DNA of 64,000 bases from Coriobacteriales bacterium (GTDB lineage Bacteria > Actinomycetota > Coriobacteriia > Coriobacteriales > QAMH01): contig JBMNPN010000001.1 in NCBI GenBank assembly GCA_050943615.1, positions 33,825 to 97,824 of the forward strand, read 5' to 3'. Below are positions 7,142 to 56,521 of the stretch, piece by piece; within the stretch, counting starts at the first letter, position 1, and every line of letters begins with the position of its first letter. The position numbers and the translations under genes were made by a program. The notes beneath the pieces were generated by a model that saw only the letters and a program-made list of their open reading frames with translations, ran no database searches and was not told the DNA's origin.

Positions 7142-8440
<1,299 letters not shown>

Positions 8441-8492: not shown

Positions 8493-8525
8493 ATGTACAG
8501 CGCAGATTTACCGAAGGATACCGAC

Positions 8526-11207
8526 ATGCCAGATATGCCCAAGACCTACGAGCCCAAGGAAGTGGAGGAGCGCATCCTCAAAAAGTGGCTCGACGGCAAG
8601 TACTACAGCCGCTCCGAGGGGACGCGCGGCGACCGCACCGTCGTCATCCCGCCGCCCAACGTCACCGGCATGTTGCATATGGGCCATGCGCTCGACGATA
8701 CCATCCAGGATACCTACATCCGCTACTCGCGCATGCGCGGCTATTCCACGCGCTGGATTCTCGGTACCGACCATGCCGGCATCGCGACGCAGACCAAGGT
8801 CGACAAGCACCTGAAGGAACAGGGTATCTCCCGTCTGGAGATCGGGCGCGAAAAGTTCGTGGAAGAGTGCCAGAAGTGGCGTAAAGAGTACGGCGGCATC
8901 ATCGTCGAGCAGATCAAGCGCATGGGCTGCTCGGTCGATTTCGACGACGAGAAGTTCACGATGTCGCCCGAATACGCGCGCGCGGTGCGCAAGGTGTTCT
9001 GCGACTGGTACCACGACGGGCTCATCTACCGGGGTAAGCGCATCGTCAACTGGTGCCCGAGCTGCTCCACCGCCATCAGCGATGACGAGGCGGAGTACAA
9101 GGACGAGAAAGGCCACCTCTGGTACCTGCGCTATCCTCTTACCGAGCCGGTCGATGGCGTGGAGTACATCACCGTGGCGACGACCCGCCCCGAGACGATG
9201 CTCGGCGACACGGGCGTGGCCGTTTCCCCCGACGATCCCGACAAGGCAAAGTTCATCGGCAAGACGGTAAAGCTTCCCATCGTGGACCGCGAGATCCCGA
9301 TTTTCTCCGACTGGCACGTAGATGCGGGCTTTGGCACCGGCTTCGTCAAGGTGACGCCCGCGCACGACCCCAACGACTATGCGATGGGACAGACCCACGA
9401 TCTGCCGCAGATCAACATCTTCGACGAGCATGCCGTCGTCGTCGACGGCTACGGCGAGTTCTCCGGGCTCGACCGCGATGCCTGCCGCGAGCGCGTCGTC
9501 GCCTGGTTCGAGGAGCACGACCTGCTCGACCACGTCGAGGACATCGAGCACTCCGTCATGCACTGCTACCGCTGCGATTCCGCGCTCGAGCCCTGGCTGT
9601 CCGAACAGTGGTTCGTCGCGGTCGACAAGCTAAAGGGCCCGGCCACCGATGTCGTCGAGAACGGAGAGGTGACCTTTCACCCGAGCCGCTGGACACAGAC
9701 GTACATGACCTGGATGGAGAACCTCAAGGACTGGTGCATCAGCCGCCAGCTGTGGTGGGGACACCGCATCCCCGTCTTCTACTGCGACGAGTGCGGCTGG
9801 CAAGACGCGCTTCTCGAGGACACGGACACCTGCCCCAAGTGCGGCGCCCACGTCCATCAGGACGAAGACGTGCTCGACACCTGGTTCTCGAGCCAGCTGT
9901 GGACCTTCGCCACGCAGGGCTGGCCCGACCATCCCGAGCAGATGGAGGGGCACCATCCCACCAAGGTGCTCGTCACGGCGCGCGACATCATCGCGCTGTG
10001 GGTGGCGCGCATGGTCATGAGCTCGCTCTACTTCACGCACGAGATCCCGTTCCACGACGTCTTCATCTACGCGACGATCCTTGCCAAGGACGGTAGCCGC
10101 ATGTCCAAGTCCAAGGGCAACGGCGTCGACCCGATGGACCTCATCGAGAAGTACGGTGCCGATGCGATGCGCTACAACCTGCTCACGCTCGTCACCAACA
10201 ACCAGGACGTCAAGTTCGACGCCAACATCGACAAGAAGACCCACAAGCTCATCGACTCGCCGCGCACGGACGCGGCGCGCAACTTTGTCACCAAGATCTG
10301 GAACGCGAGCCGCTTCGTGCTCATGAACCTCGATGGCTACGAGCCCGGCGAGCCGGAGGCGGCGACCCGCGCCGATGCCTGGATCCTCTCGCGCCTGGCA
10401 AAGCTCACGCGCTCGGTCACCGACGGCATCGAGGAGTACCGCTTTGGCGATGTGGCCCGCGAGCTCTACGGCTTTTTCTGGAACGAGTTCTGCGACTGGT
10501 ACATCGAGCTGTGCAAGGACCGCCTCAACTCCGACGATGCGGAAGAGCGCGCCGTGGCGCAGCGAAATCTCGTCTTCGTGCTCGACACCGCGCTCAGGCT
10601 CCTGCATCCGGTCATGCCATTCGTGACCGAGGCGATCTGGGAGATCCTGCCGCTTGACGATGACGCACCCGCCTTGATGGTGGCCGCCTGGCCCGAACCC
10701 GACGAACTCGCCAAGTGGATCGACGAGCCCACCGAACAGGCGATTTCGCTTGCCACCAAGATGGTCGGCTCCGTGCGTTCCACGCGTGCGCGCTATGGTA
10801 TCAGCCCGAAAACCGAGCTTTCCGTCTCCTGCCGTGCGGCCGGCGCGGATGCCGACAAGGTCTCCGGCCTGCTCGAGCAGGAGCGTCCGCTCATCAGCTC
10901 GCTTGCGCGCCTGAGCTCCTTTGAGGTCCTGCCCGCCGATGCGGCAAAGCCCGCCGAGTCCGGTGTTGATCTGGTCGAGGGCATCGAGGTCTTCACGAAG
11001 CTTACCGGCCTGGTCGACTTCGAAGAGGAGCGCGCCCGTCTGGAAAAGCGCCGCGGCAAGGCGCAAAAGGAGCTCGCCAAGCTCGACAAGAAGCTCGACA
11101 ATGAGAACTTCCTCTCCAAGGCGGCACCCGAGGCAGTCGAGAAGGTGCGCGCCGACCATGCCGAGCTCGAACGCGAGCTCGCGCTCATCGCAGCCCAGCT
11201 CGACTAG
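8526..11207 (+). CDS. valS: valine--tRNA ligase
   Basis: [12 protein letters not shown] (HIGH) and KMSKS motifs, C-terminal coiled coil. ATG 8526 has GAAGGA upstream; track start 8493 lacks an SD. Confidence 0.95.
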
Positions 11208-26034: not shown

Positions 26035-27372
26035 CTATTCATGCTGGTAGAAGGTGACGTTTGCCGCCGTCGTCTGATCGGTCTTCTCCCCGTTGTCGGT
26101 GAGCGTCCCATCGTCGTTGATGGTCAGCGTTACCATCACATCGCTGTACAACGAGCCTACGACAAGGTATTTCCCGTCGGGGCTAATCGCGCAGCCGCGC
26201 GGCCAGTTGCAGTCGAGCTTGAGCGACTGGATGTTCTTGGGAATGCCCGTGTCCTGGTCGATCTTGAAGGCCGCCACACCCTGAAAACCGCCGTCATGGA
26301 CGCGCTCGCCGTCGACGAGGTTGTCTGAAGAGCCGCGAAAGACCGAGTAGAGGTAGGTGCCATCATCGCTCATCTTCATGTCCTGCTGCTCGAACTTGCC
26401 CCCGTCGCTTTCAGAGGGAACGTCTTTCATCCAGCTCTGAGGCACGACCTTATCGGAGCCGATTTTCTTGAGCTTGCCGTCGTCGTCATAGCTGAAGACG
26501 ATGACTTCGTTTGCGCTCTCGAAGTTGAGGTAGACCCACTTCTTGGAAGGGTGGAAGCGCACGTAGCGGGGGCTGTAGCCGGCGCCGAGGCTGAAGCTGT
26601 CGGTGGTCTGCTGCAGCTCGGGTCCGGCGGGGTTGATGTTGAGGGAGTAGATGTCACCCGTTCCTTTGTCGGCGACGATGAAGAAGCTGCCGTTGGGCTC
26701 CCAGGTCACCGTGTGCAGCTGGGAGAGGTGGTTCTTCCCGCGGTAGGGCTTGCAGTCGAGCGGCGGGTCCACGAGGGTGCCGTCGTCGTTTCGCTTGAAG
26801 AGGACCACAGATGCCGTCGGGCATTGCGGAACAATCGTCCACTTGCCGTCTTTCTTCTCGGTCGTGCAGACGCAGGGCTTTGCCGTGTGGATGGAGCAGA
26901 CCAGGTATTGCCCGGTGGGGTCGAGACTCACCATCGAAGGGTTGGAGCCATAGGAGGGCACCTGCTGCTTTTCGGTCAGGGAGCCATCTGATTCGTTGAC
27001 CTCGTAGACAAAGATGCGCCCGCCCTTTCCGGCGCTCATGCCCTTCTCTTTATCGTAGGGCTGATCGCTCTCGTCGGTGACGTAGAGGAGCTTCTTGTCA
27101 TAGTCGATGGCGATGAAGCCGACGTTGACCTCGTCGGTGATCTGCTTGGAATCGCTCATCTTGCCGGTAGAGGTATCGAAGGTGTGGACCCAGAGGCCGG
27201 CGTCTCCGCCCTTTTCGTTCCAGCATCCGGTGTAGAGAAAGGTCTTCGTCCCGCTCGACGACGAAGTGGAGCAGCCCACCAGGCCAAAGCCGGCACTCGC
27301 CACCGCGGCCCCGATGCCGAGGGCGGCGCATCCCTTGATGAAGCTTCTGCGGTCGAAATACAGTTCGCTCAT
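26035..27372 (-). CDS. lactonase-like 7-bladed beta-propeller, Tat-exported lipoprotein
   Basis: MSELYFDRRSFIKGCAALGIGAAVASAGFGLVGCS gives a twin-arginine motif plus an LVGC lipobox. Body resembles YbhE/Pgl-type lactonase propellers (PRYVRFHPSKKWVYLNFESANEVIVF). Confidence 0.75.
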   Translation of the reverse strand: MSELYFDRRSFIKGCAALGIGAAVASAGFGLVGCSTSSSSGTKTFLYTGCWNEKGGDAGLWVHTFDTSTGKMSDSKQITDEVNVGFIAIDYDKKLLYVTDESDQPYDKEKGMSAGKGGRIFVYEVNESDGSLTEKQQVPSYGSNPSMVSLDPTGQYLVCSIHTAKPCVCTTEKKDGKWTIVPQCPTASVVLFKRNDDGTLVDPPLDCKPYRGKNHLSQLHTVTWEPNGSFFIVADKGTGDIYSLNINPAGPELQQTTDSFSLGAGYSPRYVRFHPSKKWVYLNFESANEVIVFSYDDDGKLKKIGSDKVVPQSWMKDVPSESDGGKFEQQDMKMSDDGTYLYSVFRGSSDNLVDGERVHDGGFQGVAAFKIDQDTGIPKNIQSLKLDCNWPRGCAISPDGKYLVVGSLYSDVMVTLTINDDGTLTDNGEKTDQTTAANVTFYQHE

Positions 27373-27393
27373 TGTGATATCGCCTCTCAATGT

Positions 27394-28590
27394 CTAAAGC
27401 TCGAAGAACGTGATGCCGGAGCAGGTGCTCTGGTCGGCGCGCGTCCCCGTGTCGGTCAGCTTGCCGTCGCTTCCGATGGAGCAGGTCGCGACCTTGTCGC
27501 TGTACAGCGACCCGACGAGCAGGTACTTGCCATCGGGGCTGATCGCGCAGCCGCGCGGCCAGTAGATGTCGTCGAACTCGAGGCGCTGGACGGTCGTCAC
27601 CTTGCCGCTTGTCTGATCGATCTGGTAGACGGCAACACCCTGGAAGCCGCCGTCGTGGTAGCGCTTGGTCCCGACGAAGTGATCGTTCGAGCCGCGGTAG
27701 CAGCTGTAGATGAAAGTGCCCTTGTCGTTGATGCGCATGTCCTGGCTTTCAAAGCGGCTCTGCTCGTCCACGGAGTCACGTTGGTCCTGCGGAACGACCA
27801 GGTCGCTTCCTACCAGGGTCAACTTGCCTTTGCTGTCATAGGAGAAGGCGTCGAGCCGGTTTGCCGCCTCGTAGTTGACGAAGAGGAAGTTCTTCTTGGG
27901 ATGGAAGCGCACGTAGCGCGGCTTGCTGTCGGAGCCGGCATCGTATTCGCTCGCCTTGACGAGGCGCTTTTTGCTCTCGTCGACCTTGAGCGTGTAGATC
28001 AGCCCGGTGCCCTTGTCGTTGACGATGATGAAGCGCCCCTTGGGGTCCCAGACGCAGGAGTGCATGTGGGCCGGAACGTCCGCCGTCTTGTTTTTGAAGA
28101 TGTCGACCACCTCGCCGATCGTGCCATCGGAGTTCATCTCGAACAAGACGACCTCGCCATCGGCATAGCGCGGCACGATGGTCCAGGCGCCGTTCTCCTT
28201 CTTGACCTGGCAGCACATGGGGTTTGCGCCGTGGATGGAGCAGCAGCCCCACTTGCCGTCGGGGCTCTTCGTGAACATGGAGGGGTTCGACCCGAAGGAC
28301 TTCTTCTTCTGCAGCAGCTTCAGGCCGCCTTCGGAATCGACGTGGTAGACCCAGATGTTGCCTCCGCCGCCAGAGCCGATCCCTGCCTCCTCGTCGAAGG
28401 GCTGGTCGATTTCGTCGACAAAGTAGAGCAGTCGGTTGTCTTCGTCTACAAAGCAGTTGCTCGAACGAAGGACATCGCTTATCTGCTTTCCCTTTCCAAG
28501 CTCGCCGGTCTTTGCATCGTAGCTGTGAGACCACAGGCCGTCCTCGCCGCCATGCTCGCCCCAGCTACTGCAATACACTTTGATTGCCAT
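27394..28590 (-). CDS. lactonase-like 7-bladed beta-propeller, cytoplasmic paralog
   Basis: Starts MAIKVYCSSWGE after GGAAGGGAAAGAG, with no signal peptide. Shares GSNPSM, CSIH, WTIVP, PRYVRFHP and WPRGCAISPDGKYL blocks with 26035-27372. Confidence 0.75.
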   Translation of the reverse strand: MAIKVYCSSWGEHGGEDGLWSHSYDAKTGELGKGKQISDVLRSSNCFVDEDNRLLYFVDEIDQPFDEEAGIGSGGGGNIWVYHVDSEGGLKLLQKKKSFGSNPSMFTKSPDGKWGCCSIHGANPMCCQVKKENGAWTIVPRYADGEVVLFEMNSDGTIGEVVDIFKNKTADVPAHMHSCVWDPKGRFIIVNDKGTGLIYTLKVDESKKRLVKASEYDAGSDSKPRYVRFHPKKNFLFVNYEAANRLDAFSYDSKGKLTLVGSDLVVPQDQRDSVDEQSRFESQDMRINDKGTFIYSCYRGSNDHFVGTKRYHDGGFQGVAVYQIDQTSGKVTTVQRLEFDDIYWPRGCAISPDGKYLLVGSLYSDKVATCSIGSDGKLTDTGTRADQSTCSGITFFEL

Positions 28591-28806
28591 AGTCGCACTC
28601 TTTCCCTTCCTGCCGTGTTGCCTCTTTTTTACAGGCACTCTCAGGGTAGGAAGGCGCCGATAGGGGCGGCATATGATATTTTTCATAAGGCGCTTTGCAA
28701 GGGGTATGATTTTACTCATGAACATGTAGATTCGTTCAGCTGCCACCCCCTTTGGCCTAGCAAGGGGGCGCAGAGACAACGACATGGCATTTGTCCGAGG
28801 ATGCAC

Positions 28807-30294
28807 ATGAGAAGACACCGGGAAATCTCGTCAGCAGCGGGGGATGCGTATGCACGCGCATCGCATCCTTCCGCATCTGCCCTGTGCTATCTGGGCATGG
28901 GACTCTACCTTGCGTGGACGGTTGGCAACAACATCGTGCGCAAGGCCATCGGCATCCGCCAGATTCCCTCGGCGGACTTTGCCCAGATGGTCTGCAATAT
29001 GGGCGCGAGCATTGTCGTGCTGATCGTCGTCCTGCTCTGCAGCAGGAGAATCAAAACGCTTCTCTCGCGCTCCCGCTTGCAGGCGCTCGCGGTGCTTTCC
29101 CTGACGGGTGGCACGGCGCTCATGCTCGCGGTCCTTCCCCTGAATGCAATCGGTGCGGGCCAGTTCGCCGCACTTTCAGTGGTCTGTGTGGGCTCGCTCT
29201 TCCGCGGCCTGGGGTCCGCGTTCTTCTTCCTGATGTGGAACGAGGTCTACGCGCGCATGCCGCTCAAGCGCGTGAGCCTCTGGTACAGCGGGTCCTATCT
29301 GCTCTCCGTGATACTGCACGCGCTGCTCACGTACTTGCCGTCGATCGTCGCGGCCTGGATTGTCGTCGCGCTTCCCCTGGGTTCATACGGGCTGTTTCGC
29401 CAGGCGCTCAAGGAGCCTGAGGTCGAGGCGCATGACGAGAACCCCGAAGCGCGCGAGTGGACCTTTCCCGTGCGGCCGCTGGTCCTTATAGGGCTCGTCA
29501 CGTTCGTGGTCTTTTTCTGCCACCATGCTGTCGGGGACAGCTCCTCTGCTGCCGACTGGGTCGGTGGAGGTCTCGTCGCCGCCGTGAGTCTGGTGCTCTG
29601 CCTTGCCTGGAAGAATTTCTCTGCCGATCAGCTCGAGCACGTTTGCGTGCCGCTCATGGTGGCGGGGCTTCTTGTCTGGAGCGTCGGTGGGGAAGGGCTG
29701 AGCTGGGCGGTAGTGGCCCTCACGGATGCCGGCAACATCGCGTTTCGCATCTTCGTGCTCGTCATGGCCTGCAGTATCTGCTACCGCTTCAAGGTGCCGG
29801 CGCTGTGGATGTTTTCCATCGTGCGCCTGGTCATGCTCTTCTCCGAGATGCTTGCCTTGGGATTCGGGCTCTGGCGCGACATGAGCTACGGGCCGCTTGA
29901 CGTCTCCGAGGTACAGGTCATCTGCGCCGTGCTCATCTTCGTCCTCGTCGTGGTCGCCTCCGTTTCCTCGCACAACCCCTTTATAGCCGGTCACTCGTGG
30001 GCGGTGCTTCCCAAGAAGGCCAAGGGCGAGACGCGCGACGAACAGCTCTTGAGCGTCATGAGCAAAAACGAACTCATGGTCTGGAAGTGCGCCAAGGTCG
30101 CCCGCGCCCATGGACTCACGCATCGCGAGGAAGAGGTCCTGTCCTGCCTTGCAAACGACATGACCAACGCGCAGATTCAAGAGGCGCTCTTCATCAGCGT
30201 CGGAACGTGCAACACGCACATGCGCCATATCTACGAGAAGCTCGATGTCCATTCGCGCAAGGAAGCAATCGACCTGGTGAATTCCGCAGTCTGA
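28807..30294 (+). CDS. polytopic-membrane LuxR-family transcriptional regulator
   Basis: About 10 TMs followed by a C-terminal HTH (LTHREEEVLSCLANDMTNAQIQEALFISVGTCNTHMRHIYEKLDV). ATG 28807 is 6 nt after GAGG (28801 is an alternative). Confidence 0.85.
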   Translation: MRRHREISSAAGDAYARASHPSASALCYLGMGLYLAWTVGNNIVRKAIGIRQIPSADFAQMVCNMGASIVVLIVVLLCSRRIKTLLSRSRLQALAVLSLTGGTALMLAVLPLNAIGAGQFAALSVVCVGSLFRGLGSAFFFLMWNEVYARMPLKRVSLWYSGSYLLSVILHALLTYLPSIVAAWIVVALPLGSYGLFRQALKEPEVEAHDENPEAREWTFPVRPLVLIGLVTFVVFFCHHAVGDSSSAADWVGGGLVAAVSLVLCLAWKNFSADQLEHVCVPLMVAGLLVWSVGGEGLSWAVVALTDAGNIAFRIFVLVMACSICYRFKVPALWMFSIVRLVMLFSEMLALGFGLWRDMSYGPLDVSEVQVICAVLIFVLVVVASVSSHNPFIAGHSWAVLPKKAKGETRDEQLLSVMSKNELMVWKCAKVARAHGLTHREEEVLSCLANDMTNAQIQEALFISVGTCNTHMRHIYEKLDVHSRKEAIDLVNSAV

Positions 30295-30346: not shown

Positions 30347-31288
30347 TCAGAGCGATGACGATTCAGAGTAGGTGGTCGAGAAGACCTTCTTTGCAAGCTC
30401 GATGAAACGCCTGCAGCGGGCGTTGGGATGGGCGTCGCGGCGGTAGACGAATCCGATATCGACACGCGCCTGCGGCGTGGAAAGCGGGGTGAAGTGGAGC
30501 CCTTCCGTGGGGATGCCCCGGTCGGCCATGGAGATGCGGTATCCGAACGAATCGTAGAGGGAGGCCGCGTCCTTGTGGGCGAACTCGATGAGCAGGCGCA
30601 GCGCAGAGGTGCGTAACTGGACGTTTTGAAGAGGCGTTTCTCTGAACAGCCAGTTCACGTAGTCGCTCAGGTCCTTGTTCGAGTTGAAGGCAAGCGGCGT
30701 GTGCACGAGGTCGGCGCGACTGATGCTCGACTGCCCGGCAAGTGGGAACCCTTCGCGCCATATGACGCCGGTGTGCGTGCTCAAGACCAATTCGAAGGCG
30801 AGACCCTCGTCTGCTGTCAGATTCTCGACCAGGCCGTGCCTGAGCTCGAGCAGGTACAGCTCGGCCGTCTTCCCAACTTTGGCGAGCTCCATGATCTTCG
30901 CGTTCGGCTCTTCGTTTACCTGCGTGCTCGCGAGAATCCCCGTTCCCGTTGCCTGGAGCCCCGCCAATATCGACATTGCGTACTCGCTTGCCGTGACCGT
31001 GAGGTGCGGGGCGTCTTCTTGCGCCTGTGCATCGACGAGGGCGATGTCGTCGACCGCTGCTCCGATTTCTGTGACGATGCGCTGGGCATGGGGGAGGAGC
31101 GCGCGTCCCTGAGCGGTCAGGTGCACGCCCTGCCTGCTGCGCATGACGAGCTTGGTGCCGAGCTCGTTTTCGAGTGCCGTGACCGACTTGTTCAGTCCCT
31201 GTGGCGAGATGAAGAGCAGACGCGCGGCCGCGCTGAACGACTGAGCGTGGGCAAGGGCAACGAAGTAACGGATGCTTTCAGTGTTCAT
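30347..31288 (-). CDS. LysR family transcriptional regulator
   Basis: N-terminal wHTH IRYFVALAHAQSFSAAARLLFISPQGLNKSVTALENELG plus a substrate-binding domain. Confidence 0.9.
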   Translation of the reverse strand: MNTESIRYFVALAHAQSFSAAARLLFISPQGLNKSVTALENELGTKLVMRSRQGVHLTAQGRALLPHAQRIVTEIGAAVDDIALVDAQAQEDAPHLTVTASEYAMSILAGLQATGTGILASTQVNEEPNAKIMELAKVGKTAELYLLELRHGLVENLTADEGLAFELVLSTHTGVIWREGFPLAGQSSISRADLVHTPLAFNSNKDLSDYVNWLFRETPLQNVQLRTSALRLLIEFAHKDAASLYDSFGYRISMADRGIPTEGLHFTPLSTPQARVDIGFVYRRDAHPNARCRRFIELAKKVFSTTYSESSSL

Positions 31289-31435
31289 GAATCTGCCGTT
31301 CTCCTCGCATGTTCGAAAACGTCGGTTTTTCTGCGGTATAGCTACGATTCGATTTTCCCATAGCGCGCCAATGTTGCAACCATTGCTTTCATCATAGGAA
31401 TAGATAGTTTGTTTCGCTTTGGCGGGGGCCTCTCT

Positions 31436-31450
31436 ATCATTGAATCAGAT
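31436..31450. promoter_or_regulatory. ATC-N9-GAT LysR-type (T-N11-A) box
   Basis: ATCattgaatcaGAT in the divergent lysR/molybdoenzyme intergenic region, about 100 bp upstream of ATG 31549. Confidence 0.4.
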
Positions 31451-31548
31451 ATGTGCTGTTTGACAGGCTGAAGAAGGGAGGAGACCCGTTTCGGGCGAGC
31501 GCGCCTGCAATTGAGAGAGAGTTTGCACGTGGAGAGAAAGGGGCATTC

Positions 31549-33945
31549 ATGTCCAAAGACGAATCGTTTGTCTACACCTGCTGTCCGGGGTGGGGCGACC
31601 ACGAGTACTGCGTGATCAAGTCCATCGTCAAGGACGGCAAGCTCATCCGCACGGAAAAGGCCGACTACACGGGCGCCGAGGCCGATGAGGGCTACATCTG
31701 CCAGAAGGGCATCATGTCATGCCGTCAGCCCTACAATTCAAAGCGCCTCACCCACCCGCTCAAGCGCGTCGGTAAACGCGGCGAGGGCAAGTGGGAGGAG
31801 ATTAGCTGGGACCAGGCACTCGACGAGATTGCCGAAAAGCTCCTCAAGATCAGAGACGAATATGGCCCCGAATCGCTCGTGTTCTGGAACGTCACGGCCT
31901 CCATGCCGCCGAGCATGGGCCTTGCCACGCTGCTCACGAGCCGCTTCACCGGCCTGTGGGGCGCAAGCGACCCCATTCAGGGCTACGGCCTCGACAACGG
32001 CCCGTTCTACGCGTCGTTTTTCGACATGGGCAACTTCTACAAGTACATGACGACCGACCCCGCCAATTTCGACGACGCCGACCTGTTCATCGTCTGGGGT
32101 GCCAACCCGATCGAAAACCAGCAGCGCATCGCCAAGCACATCGTGGAGTGCAGAAGCCGCGGCGGCAAGATCGTCGACATCGGCCTCATCTTCGATGCGA
32201 CCGCGGGCTATGCTGACCAGTTCATTCCCATCAAACCCGGCGCCGACCCCGCGCTCTCGATGACGATGGCAAATCTCATCATCCAAAACAAGCGCTACGA
32301 CGAGGCGTTCCTGCTTGCGAACACCGTGGCGCCGTTTCTCGTGCGCGACGATGACGATATGTTCTACCGCGATAAGGACGGCAATTACGTGGTCTGGGAC
32401 ACCGAGAAGAATGCTCCGGTCTCCATGGTCGCTGGCACCAAGGACAGCCCGTCCGAGCACATGGAGCTCGATGGCGCGCACGTCATCGACGGCGTTTCCT
32501 GCAAGACGGCCTTTGCCCGTCTGCGCGAGCACGCCAGCTCCTACACGCCCGAGTGGCAGGAGCACATCACGGGCATCAAGCCCGAGGTGGTGGAAAAGCT
32601 CACCGCCGAATACGTCGATGCCCCGAACGCCTACATCTTCGGCGCGCTCGGCCTGCGCTACCAGAACCAGGGCGAGAGCTACCGCTCCTTCTACCTGCTC
32701 GGCATGCTGACCGGCAAGCTCGGGCGCCCCGGTTCGGGCGTCACCTCCGAGATGCTGCCGTCGGGCTTTCCGATGGTGTTCAACGACGGGGCCATTACCA
32801 TGCCGCTCGGCCGCGAGGGCTACAAGGGAAAGTACATGCGCCAGGCCGAGTTCATCGAGCAGGTCCAGACGCAGAAGCCCTATCCGCTCAAGGCGTTCTG
32901 GAAGACGCAGGGCAACCCCGTTCACAACTGCCCCAACCGCGGGCTCTGGATCGACAAGATCTTCCCGCAGATGGAGCTCATCGTCGACGTCGACATCTGG
33001 ATGACCGACACCGGGCAGTACGCCGACTACGTGTTGCCCGACTGCATGCCCTTCGAGCGCTACGAGCTCGTCGTCTCGGCTGCCTACAACCATATCGTCC
33101 TGCAGGAACCGGCCATCGAGCCTCCCGAGGGCTGCAAGGACCCGACCTACATCTACAGCGAGCTTGCCAAGCGCGTCGGCCTGGGCGAGTACTTCGACAA
33201 GACGGCCGAGGAGTGGATCGCGTTGAGGCTGCAATCCAAGTGGCCGTTCATCGCAAAGATCGACCCACCGCTCACCTACGAGCGCCTGAAGAAGGAGAAG
33301 ATGGTGCGCGCCGCGGTTCCGCCGGTTCACTGGGACCCCTTCATGGGCCTCGAATTCGACACGCCCTCCAAGCGCCTCGAGTTCTACAGCGAACGGCTCG
33401 TGCCCGTGCACGACCAGCTCGCGCAGTACCTCGAGCCGCTCGAGGCACCGACGCCGATGAGCCTGAAGGAGGGGCGCGCCAAGGGCAGGTACCACTTCTT
33501 CAGCGGCCGCCAGCGCTTCTTCATGCAGTCGATGTTCACCGACGACCCCGTCATGGCCGAGCTTTCCGGCGGCCACCCGACCGGGCGCATGAACCCCATC
33601 GACGCCGAAAAGGAGGGCATCGAGGATGGTGACAAGGTCGAGATCTACAACGGGCGCGGGCACGTGGTGCTCGAGATGAAGCTCGACCAGGTCATACCGC
33701 CGGGAACGGTCCAGTGCTGGTTCGGCTGGCGGCACGATGCCTTCGAAGAGGGCATGTACTCCGAGCTCATTCCCGAGCTGGGCTCCAACTACACCCTCGA
33801 TGACCGTGCCCTCAACTGGGTCAAGTGCGTCGAGGACATCAATGGCTACCAGCCGGGCTTTGGGACGGGAGGCATCGGCGGCATGGCCGGTGCCTGGGAC
33901 ACGATATGGGACTGCGCATGCGACGTGCGCAAGGTCGAGGACTAG
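31549..33945 (+). CDS. molybdopterin (bis-MGD, DMSO-reductase superfamily) oxidoreductase, catalytic subunit, no signal peptide
   Basis: MopB-type layout (HPLKRVGKRGEGKWEEISWDQALDEIAEKL, WGANPIENQ, C-terminal MGD-binding barrel). ATG 31549 after GGAGAGAAAGGGG. N-terminal Cys pattern is CC-x8-C-x29-C. Confidence 0.85.
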   Translation: MSKDESFVYTCCPGWGDHEYCVIKSIVKDGKLIRTEKADYTGAEADEGYICQKGIMSCRQPYNSKRLTHPLKRVGKRGEGKWEEISWDQALDEIAEKLLKIRDEYGPESLVFWNVTASMPPSMGLATLLTSRFTGLWGASDPIQGYGLDNGPFYASFFDMGNFYKYMTTDPANFDDADLFIVWGANPIENQQRIAKHIVECRSRGGKIVDIGLIFDATAGYADQFIPIKPGADPALSMTMANLIIQNKRYDEAFLLANTVAPFLVRDDDDMFYRDKDGNYVVWDTEKNAPVSMVAGTKDSPSEHMELDGAHVIDGVSCKTAFARLREHASSYTPEWQEHITGIKPEVVEKLTAEYVDAPNAYIFGALGLRYQNQGESYRSFYLLGMLTGKLGRPGSGVTSEMLPSGFPMVFNDGAITMPLGREGYKGKYMRQAEFIEQVQTQKPYPLKAFWKTQGNPVHNCPNRGLWIDKIFPQMELIVDVDIWMTDTGQYADYVLPDCMPFERYELVVSAAYNHIVLQEPAIEPPEGCKDPTYIYSELAKRVGLGEYFDKTAEEWIALRLQSKWPFIAKIDPPLTYERLKKEKMVRAAVPPVHWDPFMGLEFDTPSKRLEFYSERLVPVHDQLAQYLEPLEAPTPMSLKEGRAKGRYHFFSGRQRFFMQSMFTDDPVMAELSGGHPTGRMNPIDAEKEGIEDGDKVEIYNGRGHVVLEMKLDQVIPPGTVQCWFGWRHDAFEEGMYSELIPELGSNYTLDDRALNWVKCVEDINGYQPGFGTGGIGGMAGAWDTIWDCACDVRKVED

Positions 33946-33958
33946 GAGGGAGACGAAG

Positions 33959-34354
33959 ATGAACGAGGGAACGATTCTGGTCAACCTCCAGCGCTGCACG
34001 GGCTGCTGGACCTGCTCGCTTGCCTGCAAGGTGGGAAACGACCTGCCCGATGACGCCTATCGCATCACGGTGCGCACCGAGGGAAGCGGCGAGGGCATCG
34101 ACCGCCCCGCCGGCACCTGGCCCGACCTGCATATGAGCTGGATTCCCATCTGGCGTACGGACTGCACCAAGTGCCCCGAGCGTCTGAAGGAAGGCGAACC
34201 CGCCTACTGCGTGAACTCCTGTCCGAACGGCGCGCTCACCATGGGAGACGCCGCAAAAGAGGAGGTCGAGGCCCTGCGCAAGGAGGGCTTCAGGATTTTC
34301 TCGCTTCCCGCTTGGGAGAACTCCAAGAGCGAAATCTTGTACGTGAGCAAATAA
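33959..34354 (+). CDS. small 2x[4Fe-4S] ferredoxin-type subunit
   Basis: CTGCWTCSLAC (C-x2-C-x2-C-x3-C) and CTKC-x11-CVNSCP; 131 aa; ATG 13 nt after the large-subunit stop, following AGGAGGGAGA. Confidence 0.8.
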   Translation: MNEGTILVNLQRCTGCWTCSLACKVGNDLPDDAYRITVRTEGSGEGIDRPAGTWPDLHMSWIPIWRTDCTKCPERLKEGEPAYCVNSCPNGALTMGDAAKEEVEALRKEGFRIFSLPAWENSKSEILYVSK

Positions 34355-34380: not shown

Positions 34381-34421
34381 CCGCGGCTGCCCTCTGCCAG
34401 GGCAGCCGCGGGTTTTTCATT
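34381..34421 (+). terminator. strong intrinsic terminator after the molybdoenzyme operon
   Basis: Perfect 13-bp stem CCGCGGCTGCCCT/AGGGCAGCCGCGG, loop CTGCC, then GTTTTTCATT. Confidence 0.85.
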
Positions 34422-34541: not shown

Positions 34542-35600
34542 ATGGATCGGCAAGACCCGGTATTCGAGGGGGAGGAAAAGCGGGAGATCGAATCTCTCAC
34601 GACCGTCAAGCGCATCGAAGGCACCTTTCGAAAAGCGGAGCTCTTGCTTCCAGAGGCAGTTCGCGAATGCCCCGGCATCGCGCTGTTCGGCCGTGTCATC
34701 CGCTCTCTGGTCTTTTCCACTGACATCGCGATCATCAGAAACTGCGATGCCGACGCGGTGCTCGCGGTCTACCCGTTCACCTGCCAGCCTTCGATTACCC
34801 AGGCGCTTCTGAGCTACGCCGAGCGTCCCGTCTTCACGGGCGTCTCCGGCGCGGTGACGACGGGTGTGCGCTCGGTCGAGCTTGCCATCCAGTCGGAGAT
34901 GCAGGGCGCCAGTGCCGTCGTCGCCAACACGTCGACGCCGCCCGAGGTCATCGCCAGCATGGCGCGCAGCATCGACATTCCCGTCGTGGTCTCGATCTTC
35001 GAGCTCAACGAGTTTTCCATCGAGCAGATCAACGCGGGCGCGCAGATCGTCAACGTCACGGCGGGCAGGGATACCATGGGAGTCGTCGAGGAGCTGCGCA
35101 CGCTGTATCCCACGCTGCCGATCATCGCGAGTGGCGGAAAGACCAACGAGTCGGTCCGCGCCACCATTGCGGCAGGTGCTGATGCGGTCTCTTGGACGCC
35201 TCCGAGCCTAGCCGAGCTCGAACGCCATTCCATGGAGAAGAACGCTGCGTTGCACAAGCTGAACCGCAATGAGCCCCCTGAGGACGAGACTCCAGAGCAG
35301 CGCGAGTCCCGTCTGCTCAAGTACATATCCAACGCCGCGGGGCAGTTCTACGAAATCGACGAGGAACGTCGTCGCCAGCTGGTGAGCGAGCCTGCCCAGA
35401 GTGTGAACGAGTTCCTCTCGCGCCATCTCGACGTCACCGAGCAGACGCTCCTGCGCTCGCTGATCGCGAAGCTCTTCGAGATCTCGCAGCCTGGAACGGA
35501 TGAGGCCGCCGCCCAGCAGGCCGACCAGCCGGAAGCTCAGGGCGAATCTCAGAACCAAGTTTCAGCCGAAAACGGGAACCAACCTCCTGTGGTGACTTAA
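34542..35600 (+). CDS. TIM-barrel-like (ribulose-phosphate-binding-barrel-like) protein with acidic disordered tail, function unknown
   Basis: Alternating beta/alpha pattern ending LPIIASGGKTNESVRATIAAGADAV; the C-terminal ~110 aa are charged/low complexity. Confidence 0.55.
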   Translation: MDRQDPVFEGEEKREIESLTTVKRIEGTFRKAELLLPEAVRECPGIALFGRVIRSLVFSTDIAIIRNCDADAVLAVYPFTCQPSITQALLSYAERPVFTGVSGAVTTGVRSVELAIQSEMQGASAVVANTSTPPEVIASMARSIDIPVVVSIFELNEFSIEQINAGAQIVNVTAGRDTMGVVEELRTLYPTLPIIASGGKTNESVRATIAAGADAVSWTPPSLAELERHSMEKNAALHKLNRNEPPEDETPEQRESRLLKYISNAAGQFYEIDEERRRQLVSEPAQSVNEFLSRHLDVTEQTLLRSLIAKLFEISQPGTDEAAAQQADQPEAQGESQNQVSAENGNQPPVVT

Positions 35601-35691: not shown

Positions 35692-37560
35692 ATGCAGATT
35701 CGCTTGGCAGACTACGTAGCCGACTTCCTCGTCGACCATGGCATCACCGACTGTTTCATGGTGACCGGCGGTGGGGCGATGTATCTCGACGATGCCCTTG
35801 GGCACAAAGAAGGGCTTCACTGCACGTTCAACCACCACGAGCAGGCCTGCGCCATCGCGGCTGAAGGCTATGCGCGCATCGACAACCGCATTGCTGCGGT
35901 CTGCGTGACGACCGGCCCCGGTGGCACCAACGCGCTCACCGGCGTCGTGGGAGGGTGGCTCGACTCCATCCCGATGCTCATCATCTCGGGCCAGGTGCGC
36001 TATGACACGAGCGCCCGCGGGATGGGCGTGGACGTGCGCGCCGGCGGAGACCAGGAGTTCGACATCACGCGCTGCGTGGACTCCATGACCAAGTACTGCG
36101 AGATGATCGAAGACCCCAAGCGCATCCGCTACGCGCTCGAAAAGGCCCTCTACCTTGCCACCCACGGGCGTCCCGGTCCCTGTTGGATCGACATCCCGGT
36201 CAACTTCCAGGGCTGCACCATCGAGACCGACGAGCTCGTGTCCTACGACCCGGTAGAGGATTCAGACACACTCGCTCCCAAGGTGACGCAAGGCGTCATC
36301 GGGCGTGTGCTCGACAAGGTCGCGGCAGCCGAGCGCCCCGTCTTCTACAGCGGAAACGGCATTCGTCTGGCCGGCGCCTTCGACGAGTTCGAGCTTGCCG
36401 TGCGCCGCCTCGGGATTCCGGTCGTGACCGGCTGGGACAACATCGACATGATGTCCGATGAAGACCCACTCTACGTGGGGCGTGCCGGCATCATGGGCGA
36501 TCGCCCGGGCAATTGGGCCGTGCAGAACGCGACGCTGGTGCTGGCGGTGGGAAGCCGGCTCTCCATTCGCCAGGTCGGCTACAACTGGAAGACCTGGGCG
36601 CGCGCCGCCGAGGTCATCATGGTCGACGTCGATGCAGCCGAGCTCAAGAAACCGACGCTTCACGTCGAGGTGCCCATACAGGCAGACGCCAAGGACTTCC
36701 TCACCGCCCTCAACGCAGAGCTCGATCGTCGAGGCGTGCCCCGTCCGCGCCGTATGGTGCACGATGCGCTCATGTCTGATGCGCTCGTTGCCGATGGCGT
36801 CTGGCAGGCGCGCTGCCGCAAGTGGAAGAAGGTCGCTCCCGTCATCCAGCAGCGCCATTGGGACGACAAGCGCGATACCAACGTCTATGCCTTCATCGAC
36901 GCGCTGAGCTCGCGGCTGCCGGAAGGCTATACCACGGTCGTCGGAAACGGCAGCGCCTGCGTCGTGGGCAGCCACGCCTACCACATCAAGCCCCGCCAGC
37001 GCTTCATCATCAACTCCGCCATCGCCTCGATGGGCTATGACCTGCCCGCCGCAATCGGGGTCAGCAAGGCTCTCGGAGATACCGAGATCGTCTGCGTGAC
37101 CGGGGATGGCTCGATTCAGATGAACCTGCAGGAGCTGCAGACGATCCTCACCAACAAGCTGCCCATCAAGATCTTCGTCATCAACAACCAGGGGTACCAC
37201 TCGATCCGCCAGACCCAGAACAACCTCTTTTCCGAGCACAGCCATGTCGGCATCGGGCCGGAGAGCGGGGATTTGGGCTTCCCCAAGATGTCCAAGCTGG
37301 CAGACGCCTACGGCTACCCGTACTTCTGCTGCCATTCCAACAGCGAGCTCGACGACGTGCTCGATGCGGCCTTTGGGCAGGAGGGCGCCTGCATCACGGA
37401 GGTCTTCGTGAGTCCCGAGCAGCCCTTCGAGCCCAAGAGCGCCACTAAGCGCCTGCCCGATGGCAGCCTCTACAGCCCGCCGCTCGAGGATCTCAAGCCC
37501 TTCTTGAGCCGTGAGGAGCTCCAGCGGATCATGATCGTCCCGCTCCTTCCCGAAGAATAG
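35692..37560 (+). CDS. thiamine-diphosphate-dependent enzyme, acetolactate-synthase-like
   Basis: N-terminal Pyr domain (VTGGGAMYL, HEQACAIAAEGYARI, TTGPGGTNALTG) and C-terminal PP domain (GDGSIQMNLQELQT). Confidence 0.9.
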   Translation: MQIRLADYVADFLVDHGITDCFMVTGGGAMYLDDALGHKEGLHCTFNHHEQACAIAAEGYARIDNRIAAVCVTTGPGGTNALTGVVGGWLDSIPMLIISGQVRYDTSARGMGVDVRAGGDQEFDITRCVDSMTKYCEMIEDPKRIRYALEKALYLATHGRPGPCWIDIPVNFQGCTIETDELVSYDPVEDSDTLAPKVTQGVIGRVLDKVAAAERPVFYSGNGIRLAGAFDEFELAVRRLGIPVVTGWDNIDMMSDEDPLYVGRAGIMGDRPGNWAVQNATLVLAVGSRLSIRQVGYNWKTWARAAEVIMVDVDAAELKKPTLHVEVPIQADAKDFLTALNAELDRRGVPRPRRMVHDALMSDALVADGVWQARCRKWKKVAPVIQQRHWDDKRDTNVYAFIDALSSRLPEGYTTVVGNGSACVVGSHAYHIKPRQRFIINSAIASMGYDLPAAIGVSKALGDTEIVCVTGDGSIQMNLQELQTILTNKLPIKIFVINNQGYHSIRQTQNNLFSEHSHVGIGPESGDLGFPKMSKLADAYGYPYFCCHSNSELDDVLDAAFGQEGACITEVFVSPEQPFEPKSATKRLPDGSLYSPPLEDLKPFLSREELQRIMIVPLLPEE

Positions 37561-55480: not shown

Positions 55481-56521
55481 ATGTCGCTGTCAGATAGACT
55501 CTTTGGCAATTTCGGTAGCGATATGGCTATCGACCTGGGGACTGCCAACACATTGGTCTCCGTCAGAGGACAGGGAATCGTCATCAACGAACCCTCTGTC
55601 GTCGCAATAGAAAAGCAGGAGCAGCGCGTGCTCGCGGTCGGCGCCGCGGCAAAGGAGATGCTCGGCCGCACTCCGGGCAGCATCGTCGCCGTGCGCCCGC
55701 TCAAAGACGGCGTGATTGCCGACTTCGACGTGACCGAGGCGATGCTGCGCTATTTCATCAACAAAGCACAGGGCAAGCGCATGCCCTGGCATCCCAAGCC
55801 GCGTGTGGTCGTATGCGTTCCGAGCGGTGTCACGAGCGTCGAGAAGCGCGCCGTCTTCGAGGCGACCATCACCGCCGGTGCTCGCCAGGCCTTCCTCATC
55901 GAAGAGCCCATGGCCGCCGCTATCGGCGCCGGGCTTCCCGTCGACAGCCCGACCGGCTCGATGGTCGTCGACATCGGAGGCGGCACCACCGAAGTCGCTG
56001 TCATCTCCATGGGCGGCATTGTCAAATCGACTTCGATCCGCATCGCGGGCGACGCCTTTGACACGGCGGTCGTCCAGTATGCGAAGACCCACTACAACTT
56101 GGCCATCGGAGAGAGAACCGCCGAGGAAATCAAGATCACGATCGGTTCTGCGGCACCGCTCGTCGAGGAGGTCGACGTCGAGGTCCGTGGTCGCGACCTG
56201 CTCTCCGGTCTGCCGCGTACCGTGCGCATCGAGAGCGAAGACGTGCGCGAGGCGCTCGAAGAGCCGGTCAGCAAGATGATCCAGGCCGTCAAGGACACGA
56301 TGGACGAGACACCGCCTGACCTGGCGAGCGACCTCATGGAGTACGGCATCACCCTGACGGGCGGTGGCGGCATGCTCCGTGGCCTCGACGAGCGCCTGCG
56401 AAACGAGATAGGCGTTCCGGTCCATGTTTCCGAAACGGCGCTCATAAACGTCGTCGAAGGCTGCGCGGCCGTCCTCGAATCCCCCGACTTCCTCTCGCAG
56501 CCATACATGCAGCAGAGGTAA
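55481..56521 (+). CDS. mreB: rod shape-determining protein MreB
   Basis: DLGTANTLV, EPMAAAIGAG, DIGGGTTE actin-fold motifs; AAGGAG SD. Confidence 0.95.
   Translation: MSLSDRLFGNFGSDMAIDLGTANTLVSVRGQGIVINEPSVVAIEKQEQRVLAVGAAAKEMLGRTPGSIVAVRPLKDGVIADFDVTEAMLRYFINKAQGKRMPWHPKPRVVVCVPSGVTSVEKRAVFEATITAGARQAFLIEEPMAAAIGAGLPVDSPTGSMVVDIGGGTTEVAVISMGGIVKSTSIRIAGDAFDTAVVQYAKTHYNLAIGERTAEEIKITIGSAAPLVEEVDVEVRGRDLLSGLPRTVRIESEDVREALEEPVSKMIQAVKDTMDETPPDLASDLMEYGITLTGGGGMLRGLDERLRNEIGVPVHVSETALINVVEGCAAVLESPDFLSQPYMQQR

Follow-up and report, generated by a model that had tools for sequence, protein, structure and literature searches.

A putative LysR-controlled, two-subunit molybdopterin oxidoreductase in a Coriobacteriales bacterium, from a clade apart from the described catechol dehydroxylases

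Gut Eggerthellaceae encode dozens of molybdenum (Mo) enzymes that decide which diet- or host-derived compounds become bioactive (dopamine, lignans, catechins, urolithins and corticoids), and these enzymes have so far been sorted into an Eggerthella-type and a Gordonibacter-type. The Gordonibacter catechol dehydroxylases described in 2020, such as Dodh, carry no twin-arginine translocation (Tat) signal, are smaller than the Eggerthella enzymes, have a small 4Fe-4S protein encoded beside them and are regarded as soluble (PMC7028382). To the same type belong Gp Hcdh, a two-subunit enzyme of 770 amino acids (aa) reported to support ATP production (PMC11585353), the urolithin-pathway catechol dehydroxylases Eadh1-3, which are cytoplasmic, two-subunit and substrate-induced (PMC12771579), and Gs Vadh, whose gene cluster has a LysR-type regulator (PMC11887054). 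Here a two-gene operon with a divergent LysR gene is described from a Coriobacteriales bacterium (GenBank assembly GCA_050943615.1, contig JBMNPN010000001.1, positions 33,825 to 97,824; this whole stretch of 64,000 nucleotides is the window, and all positions below are counted within it). In the layout of its genes and subunits the operon works like a Gordonibacter-type dehydroxylase, yet it appears to lie outside that family.

A LysR pairing and a cytoplasmic two-subunit design are already known and are not new, because the Gordonibacter enzymes of 2020 (PMC7028382) and the LysR-linked Gs Vadh (PMC11887054) have them. What appears to be new is a widespread uncharacterised clade outside both catechol dehydroxylase classes, with a predicted Asp metal ligand, an Asp-substituted FS0 iron-sulfur site and a half-size electron-transfer subunit. 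The reading favoured here, with confidence only slightly above even, is of a LysR-controlled two-gene operon for a soluble cytoplasmic alpha-beta Mo (or tungsten, W) bis-pyranopterin oxidoreductase that works as a reductive deoxygenase or dehydroxylase on a small organic substrate.

Catalytic subunit, FS0 site and iron-sulfur partner

The catalytic subunit, a 798-aa MopB-type (bis-pyranopterin guanine dinucleotide) protein predicted to be cytoplasmic, is encoded at 31549..33945 on the forward strand, an assignment drawn from Pfam domains, homologues, an AlphaFold2 model and fold matches. Matches to PF00384 (2.1e-42) and PF01568 (1e-15), both above gathering scores, place it in the MopB / dimethyl sulfoxide (DMSO) reductase superfamily. 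No NCBIfam equivalog model reaches its cut-off with this protein, the best match being TIGR03479 (type II DMSO reductase alpha) at 312.6 bits against a cut-off of 984.75. When a profile of the family was compared with PDB chains, PcrA scored 317 bits and every other chain 232 bits or less (PsrA, 232; acetylene hydratase, 226; EbdA, 221; FdhH, 220; pyrogallol transhydroxylase, 127). The AlphaFold2 model (predicted local distance difference test [pLDDT], 90.5; predicted template modelling score [pTM], 0.92) gave Foldseek template modelling (TM) scores of 0.82 to PcrA (4ydd), 0.80 to EbdA (2ivf) and to nitrite oxidoreductase (NXR), 0.70 to acetylene hydratase and ~0.70 to FdhH. Sequence profile and modelled fold both indicate that the type II DMSO-reductase enzymes PcrA and EbdA are nearest, though the protein is only 22-23% identical to PcrA and has Pro, Ile and Ser where PcrA has its gate residues Phe164, Tyr165 and Trp461.

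The earlier note on this DNA had proposed an alignment to find the Mo ligand, and that alignment points to Asp149 (codon 31993..31995, forward strand). This residue is invariant in the family and is Asp in 129 of the 134 sequences of a wider alignment, made of full-length representatives of the nearest 50%-identity clusters in a library of 1.84 billion proteins. It aligns with PcrA Asp170, with the EbdA Asp ('VDIG'), with acetylene hydratase Cys141 and with FdhH SeCys140 (U-H-G-P, against D-N-G-P here), and is the predicted Mo/W ligand. With such a ligand the subunit falls in the type II-like, Asp-ligated branch of the DMSO reductase superfamily, though it is no orthologue of any enzyme with a solved structure.

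The FS0 loop (T10-C-C-P-G-W-G-D-H-E-Y-C21; 31576..31611, forward strand) holds three predicted ligands, C12, D17 and C21, and the predicted fourth, C51, stands with the relay lysine K53 in a C-Q-K motif at 31699..31707 (forward strand). These assignments come from family conservation and from the alignment to Escherichia coli FdhH. Among 46 aligned family members C12, P13, G14, G16, D17, C21, C51 and K53 are invariant, and W15 and H18 are at least 90% conserved. In the FdhH alignment C12 corresponds to C8, C21 to C15, C51 to C42 and K53 to the relay lysine K44 in 'LCLKG', and no residue of the catalytic subunit aligned with C11, the second FdhH ligand. The interval from Asp17 to C21, exactly four residues, equals that between the second and third FS0 ligands. 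The motif as conserved is C12-x4-D17-x3-C21-x29-C51. The earlier note had given it as 'CC-x8-C-x29-C', a version that holds only in part, Cys11 being usually Ala, Ser or Thr in homologues. Its claim of a non-canonical site does stand, with no match at E<=0.01 to PF04879 (the Pfam FS0 domain with the four-Cys pattern C-x2-C-x3-C-x26-34-C), but the site departs from the canon in a different way, through a Cys-to-Asp exchange at the second ligand.

Of the 134 wider representatives, 122 carry Cys and 6 carry Asp at position 17, 120 carry Cys and 5 carry His at position 12, and Cys is all but universal at positions 21 and 51. A sister clade reads C-Q-G-F-G-C-H-E-H-C against C-P-G-W-G-D-H-E-Y-C in this family (an example is the second gene of locus L021, 594 bits to the family profile). 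The comparison points to a Cys-to-Asp exchange at the second FS0 ligand position, in a clade whose normal motif is C-x4-C-x3-C. Because Asp17 occupies a position that holds Cys in 122 of the 134 representatives, the FS0 site is probably kept in a variant form with three Cys ligands and one Asp ligand. The AlphaFold2 model is least confident in this loop (pLDDT 64). A further Cys, the C-terminal Cys791 (33919..33921, forward strand; C789-A-C791, 33913-33921), lies in the motif W-D-(C/S)-x-C-(D/N)-(V/I)-R-K of the family alignment; it is invariant in the family and also present in the sister clade with Cys17, and is Cys in only 41 of the 134 wider representatives. It could bind a cluster, contact a subunit or play a structural part.

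Homologues of the Gordonibacter-type catechol dehydroxylases alternate between Cys and Asp at the equivalent FS0 position (PGCHP, 55 times; PGDHP, 13 times; Supplementary Table 4 of PMC11887054), and Dodh has Cys there. Gordonibacter-type homologues with this alternation were also seen at L031 (14352-16646), L052 (1632-3947) and L078 (14206-16686). The conserved Cys-to-Asp exchange at FS0 is thereby seen again in a second enzyme family of these bacteria; a literature search found no report of an Asp-ligated FS0.

The second gene (33959..34354, forward strand) encodes a small electron-transfer subunit of 131 aa with two predicted [4Fe-4S] clusters and Pfam matches to Fer4_9, Fer4 and Fer4_11. 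As the earlier note had described, it is a partner of two-cluster type with only 8 Cys; the count is exact, and all 8 are invariant in 73 sequences. With the translation checked, they fall into group A, C13-x2-C16-x2-C19-x3-C23 (33995..34027, forward strand), and group B, C69-x2-C72-x11-C84-x3-C88-P (34163..34225, forward strand). Cys group I of PsrB and ArrB is matched by residues 6-57 and their group IV by residues 67-116, so that the small subunit appears to be a DmsB/PsrB-type protein that keeps only the first and the last of four Cys groups. The counterparts of these two groups in NarH-type proteins (NarGHI) jointly form FS1 and FS2, which lie closest to the catalytic subunit. Since only these two groups are present, the small subunit may represent the proximal half of the electron wire, and its last cluster would be open to a soluble partner. 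Its gene lies 3' of the MopB gene in every locus with downstream DNA, and such an obligatory subunit with all 8 Cys invariant argues for a redox-active enzyme.

Clade, regulator and operon limits

A total of 1951 homologues of the catalytic subunit were found, the best 84% identical, with no match above that identity among 5.8 billion clusters, so that the source species seems to be missing from the public sets searched. Almost all relatives belong to Eggerthellaceae or Coriobacteriales, from human, Hadza, ruminant and rodent guts; among cultured carriers the nearest are Ellagibacter isourolithinifaciens DSM 104140 (80%; NZ_WAJR01000019.1), Gordonibacter sp. 28C (Gs 28C; 71% and 53%; NZ_PPTR01000013.1 and NZ_PPTR01000001.1) and Adlercreutzia species (47-59%). 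One orthologue cluster, 80% identical, contains 1707 sequences, and 980 representative clusters match at E<=1e-30. Nine of ten wider-clade clusters are unnamed, and the tenth is named only 'molybdopterin-dependent oxidoreductase [Chloroflexota bacterium]'. Genomes carry several paralogues of the family, with two in Gs 28C, and the clade of the operon, so far uncharacterised, appears to have expanded in gut Eggerthellaceae. Tandem arrays occur at L004 (1861-4314 and 6410-8923), L021 (179-2575, 4691-7357 and 7995-10388) and L035 (3820-6234 and 7830-10388); the tandem paralogues and the sister-clade gene are each followed by their own small iron-sulfur subunit, an arrangement that resembles the hypervariable catechol dehydroxylase clusters of Eggerthella.

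Membership in the catechol dehydroxylase families was examined against the list of a 2025 study, for which PF00384 proteins of Coriobacteriia in UniProt were collected and the two similarity-network clusters with characterised enzymes were kept, giving 419 sequences (PMC11887054). The table of these homologues gives the first 400 residues of each sequence and covers Ellagibacter DSM 104140 and Gs 28C, both of which encode the present family. The motifs GWGDH, ICQKG and FVYTAC each occur in none of the 419 listed homologues, while SAPGCHDGCGV, the positive control, occurs four times. Gordonibacter-type enzymes in the same loci score 141-167 bits to the family profile, below PcrA, PsrA, acetylene hydratase and EbdA, and the catalytic subunit, compared over the first 250 residues, is 27-29% identical to both catechol dehydroxylase types. 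The small subunits show a distant homology to the Gordonibacter-type ones (25-31% identity). On the profile scores and the absence from the 419-sequence list, membership in the catechol dehydroxylase families was rejected. A literature search on lunularin-type dehydroxylases found nothing relevant.

All open reading frames (ORFs) were clustered across 79 related loci, and only two conserved partners emerged, the small subunit downstream and a divergent regulator upstream. No transporter, anchor, FdhD, SPFH or chaperone gene was conserved near the module in these loci, and the 352-aa ORF and the thiamine pyrophosphate (TPP) enzyme downstream of the operon, as well as the lactonase and LuxR genes upstream of it, do not travel with the module.

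The MopB gene starts at ATG 31549. This codon is preceded at 5 nucleotides (nt) by a purine-rich ribosome-binding site, AAAGGGG, and 118 of 120 listed homologues start at the same site (M-x-(E)-E-S-F/Y-V-Y-T), the other two being fragments. The reading frame is open from GTG 31453, 32 codons upstream, but this extension contains no twin-arginine motif and no hydrophobic stretch, in line with the earlier note's description of a 798-aa MopB subunit without Tat signal. The small-subunit gene begins 13 nt beyond the MopB stop codon, which its AGGAGGG ribosome-binding site overlaps. An intrinsic terminator (34381..34421, forward strand; stem 34381-34411) follows 27 nt past the stop codon of the small-subunit gene, with a 13-base-pair (bp) stem of 11 G-C pairs and a 5-nt loop and then GTTTTTCATT; as it comes after the second gene, the operon would have exactly two. 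The maximal Kyte-Doolittle score over 19 residues is 1.06 for MopB, 0.85 for the small subunit and 1.47 for the downstream 352-aa ORF. No 19-residue stretch is hydrophobic enough for any of the three to be a membrane anchor, and the scan of MopB, the small subunit and this next ORF found no Tat signal, transmembrane segment or anchor gene at the operon. The earlier note's statement that no membrane-anchor subunit is encoded nearby is borne out by these scores and by the terminator. Neither a mis-called start nor a hidden signal peptide was found, nor tight clustering with a characterised family, the three outcomes that the earlier note had set against its own account.

The regulator gene (30347..31288, reverse strand) diverges from the enzyme operon and encodes 313 aa with Pfam matches to HTH_1 (8.1e-17) and LysR_substrate (1.8e-9). 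A helix-turn-helix (HTH) domain, a substrate-binding domain and divergence from the putative target all mark it as a predicted LysR-type regulator. The divergent LysR that the earlier note had described is thus confirmed, with the three ORFs at their coordinates. No NCBIfam equivalog was found for it (best match PcaQ, 66 bits against a cut-off of 304), and it matches a selenium-metabolism-associated model weakly. Upstream DNA was sufficient for 59 family genes; a homologous divergent LysR accompanies 24 of these, and another 13 have upstream of them a tandem-MarR regulator of ~300 aa with two MarR-type winged-helix domains. The latter, an unusual architecture, is encoded divergently ~100-320 nt upstream of the MopB gene at L023, L030-L034, L037, L038, L040, L048, L050, L066 and L067. 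The window LysR is 33-40% identical overall to the LysRs of L001, L013, L016, L017 and L019 (HTH, 52-63%; effector domain, 30-36%), while the catalytic subunits beside these LysRs are 75-84% identical, suggesting that the LysR sensor evolves much faster than the enzyme or was exchanged.

Between the two transcription units lies a 260-bp divergent intergenic region (31289..31548), read directly from the sequence as the promoter/operator region, with conserved blocks in 15 aligned upstream regions. A sigma-70 consensus scan of this spacer found no promoter. In the alignment of upstream regions a palindrome, GCAACC-N3-GGTTGC, is aligned in many LysR-linked orthologues (for example GCAACCATAGGTTGC at L017 and CAACCATCGGTTG at L001), and the window has a degenerate copy, GCAACCATTGCTTTC, at 31376..31390 as a candidate LysR operator. 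A strict regular expression for the palindrome matched 5 of 23 LysR-linked regions (0.2 expected from shuffles) and none of 13 MarR-linked regions.

Several features of the surroundings were recorded apart from the operon. Directly 3' of the terminator, the 352-aa ORF (34542-35600) has no Pfam domain and a weak match to a KDPG/KHG aldolase subfamily (2e-5; 24 bits against a cut-off of 238), and it is followed by a TPP-dependent acetolactate-synthase-like gene (35692-37560). On the other side, the reverse strand carries a tandem pair of paralogous 'Lactonase, 7-bladed beta-propeller' genes (PF10282), at 26035-27390 and 27394-28818, the first with a Tat/lipoprotein-like N-terminus, RRSFIKGCAALGIGAAV...LVGC. 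The pair is divergent from a gene that ends at 30294 and encodes a LuxR/GerE regulator of ~497 aa with multiple transmembrane segments. The DadR-like LuxR class with 10-12 transmembrane segments is normally described beside reductases, not beside secreted beta-propeller proteins (PMC9734109). The window has a G+C content of ~62% and looks chromosomal. Judged by eye from their N-termini, several ORFs are ones that we take to be housekeeping genes (7142-8440, ClpX; 8493-11207, ValS; 55481-56521, MreB, followed by cell-shape genes).

Proposed reaction and its alternatives

By sequence the electron path is intact, from FS2 and FS1 of the beta subunit through FS0 of the alpha subunit (C12, D17, C21 and C51), K53 and the pterin to the Asp149-ligated Mo/W. 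Such an assembly most likely functions as an inducible deoxygenase or dehydroxylase, reducing a small organic substrate that is probably diet- or host-derived. A soluble low-potential donor, which could be a ferredoxin ultimately supplied by H2 or formate, would feed electrons to the exposed beta cluster, and these would run from FS2 to FS1, to FS0 with its three Cys and one Asp, to K53, to the pterin and to Mo. There reduction would strip an oxygen atom or hydroxyl from the substrate, which formally inverts the hydroxylation of EbdA-type enzymes, and the effector domain of LysR would sense the same compound or its product and switch the operon on. Reductive deoxygenation is suggested because the Asp-ligated type II group performs oxygen-atom transfer and hydroxylation, because the host lineage specialises in reductive transformations, as is known of these gut anaerobes (PMC7028382; bioRxiv 2022.12.26.521950), and because the many paralogues with their own fast-evolving one-component regulators mirror the catechol dehydroxylases.

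Some observations weigh against this account of a reductive deoxygenase. Reduction and oxidation cannot be told apart from the sequence, and oxyanion reductases and oxidative hydroxylases are both among the closest solved structures. Asp17 as a ligand rests on alignment, with His18, the invariant Cys791 or a [3Fe-4S] cluster as possible alternatives. The candidate LysR operator is suggestive only, a lead, because the strict pattern matched just 5 of the 23 LysR-linked regions. There is also no conserved adjoining transporter gene, unlike in many Gordonibacter-type clusters.

A further Gordonibacter-type catechol dehydroxylase, removing the para-hydroxyl of a catechol, would come from the same taxa, would have the same cytoplasmic alpha and small iron-sulfur beta subunits with one regulator per enzyme, and would find a LysR-linked precedent in Gs Vadh and small subunits 25-31% identical; the bit scores of 141-167, below PcrA (317), PsrA (232), acetylene hydratase (226) and EbdA (221), the 27-29% identity over the first 250 residues and the absence of the family motifs from all 419 listed homologues nevertheless make it improbable. 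It is less probable still that the operon encodes a cytoplasmic oxyanion reductase of the nitrate, chlorate, perchlorate or selenate type, serving assimilation or detoxification. PcrA is the best match in sequence and fold, the Asp ligand is as in NarG and PcrA, and the weak LysR match to a selenium-metabolism-associated model would agree, but the PcrA gate residues are replaced by Pro, Ile and Ser, PcrA identity is only 22-23%, and neither a four-cluster beta subunit nor a maturation chaperone gene is found nearby. Numerous paralogues with separate, rapidly diverging LysR or MarR regulators are moreover typical of specialisation on organic substrates and not on a few oxyanions.

Oxidative catalysis in the manner of EbdA, by an anaerobic hydroxylase or dehydrogenase with electrons passing outward through beta, appears about equally unlikely: against the second-best fold match (EbdA, TM 0.80) and an Asp ligand common to type II hydroxylases stand the lack of a heme-b gamma subunit, of Tat export and of a four-cluster beta subunit, a host lineage known for reductive transformations and no obvious high-potential acceptor encoded nearby. 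Similarly low weight is given to a non-redox or redox-neutral enzyme, either an acetylene-hydratase-like hydratase or a hydroxyl transferase like pyrogallol transhydroxylase. Such enzymes share the cytoplasmic, signal-less state, acetylene hydratase ranks fairly high among the PDB matches (226 bits; TM 0.70), and the transhydroxylase likewise has a smaller iron-sulfur beta subunit. Acetylene hydratase, however, is a monomer with Cys141 as ligand where Asp is predicted here, and the transhydroxylase alpha subunit (PDB 4v4c) has no FS0 and a Ser ligand and reaches only 127 bits, whereas the present beta subunit, with its 8 invariant Cys, is translationally coupled and always present. Of the roles that the earlier note had offered, the dehydroxylase fits best, and hydratase and transhydroxylase are least favoured in view of the Asp ligand and the presence of FS0. 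Its cytoplasmic architecture likewise stands, but 'non-respiratory' does not follow from it, because a role in supporting ATP production is reported for Gp Hcdh, also a two-subunit enzyme (PMC11585353).

A more far-reaching version of the reductive deoxygenase is put forward tentatively, as something that may well prove wrong. The clade may form a third class of substrate-inducible cytoplasmic Mo enzymes in gut Coriobacteriia, nearer in evolution to EbdA and PcrA than to either catechol dehydroxylase class, with a chemistry foreign to the known classes and an FS0 potential retuned by Asp. Such chemistry would be, for example, the reductive removal of aliphatic or benzylic hydroxyls (EbdA-type hydroxylation reversed) or of non-catechol oxygen functions. 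If members do act on non-catechol substrates, they could explain orphan gut transformations, an example being the conversion of 5-(3',4'-dihydroxyphenyl)-4-hydroxyvaleric acid to the valeric acid, which has been attributed to uncharacterised gut bacteria (PMC11887054). This large and widespread group, which falls outside both types recognised so far, is a good candidate for substrate discovery, given the expression tools that now exist for these organisms.

Comparison with known systems

The type II enzymes (PcrA 4ydd, EbdA 2ivf, NarG and NxrA) share with the present subunit a predicted Asp metal ligand, an FS0 followed by a Lys/Arg relay, and one non-Cys FS0 ligand (His in NarG and EbdA; Asp predicted here). 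They differ in that identity is ~22%, the present enzyme is cytoplasmic without Tat signal and the PcrA gate residues are not conserved; FS0 is C-x4-D-x3-C here against H-x3-C-x3-C there, and the beta subunit has two clusters against four (three [4Fe-4S] and one [3Fe-4S]), with no gamma heme subunit. In comparison to DmsB/PsrB/ArrB-type proteins, groups II and III are missing from the small subunit (131 aa and 8 Cys against ~200-290 aa and 16 Cys). Acetylene hydratase has Cys141 as W ligand where Asp149 stands here, and an all-Cys FS0, while a small subunit is always present here. Pyrogallol-phloroglucinol transhydroxylase is set apart by the FS0 ligand positions present here, by a beta subunit with three clusters against two Cys groups, and by its profile score of 127 bits.

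Within the same bacterial family, the steroid 21-dehydroxylase cluster of E. lenta, Elen_2451-2454, comprises FdhD, a 4Fe-4S ferredoxin, a molybdopterin oxidoreductase and an SPFH protein, as outlined in a commentary (PMC11835702). That outline shows a likeness in the pairing of a Mo enzyme with a small 4Fe-4S protein, and the reductive dehydroxylation there acts on a non-phenolic hydroxyl (PMC11835702); in this comparison by description only, gene order and partners differ, FdhD and SPFH not adjoining the present operon. The Eggerthella-type enzymes (Dadh, Cadh and El Hcdh), which are substrate-induced, are likewise MopB enzymes of the same bacterial family, and their 'TCCRGCGKMEC' also has a CC doublet. 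Unlike the present enzyme, they are Tat-exported proteins of 950-1200 aa with three subunits, a four-cluster beta and a membrane anchor, and their FS0 is the canonical all-Cys C-x2-C-x4-C.

The Gordonibacter-type enzymes (Dodh, Cldh/(-)-Eddh, Gp Hcdh, Gs Vadh and Eadh1-3) differ in their N-terminal motif, W-S-x-P-G-C/D-H-x-x-C, at ~28% identity, and usually have LuxR regulators and major facilitator superfamily (MFS) transporters, against LysR or tandem-MarR regulators and no conserved transporter here. With them the present family nonetheless shares the same bacterial family, a signal-less catalytic subunit of ~770-800 aa with a small iron-sulfur partner downstream, a dedicated adjacent regulator (LysR for Gs Vadh), many paralogues per genome and the alternation of Cys and Asp at the same FS0 position.

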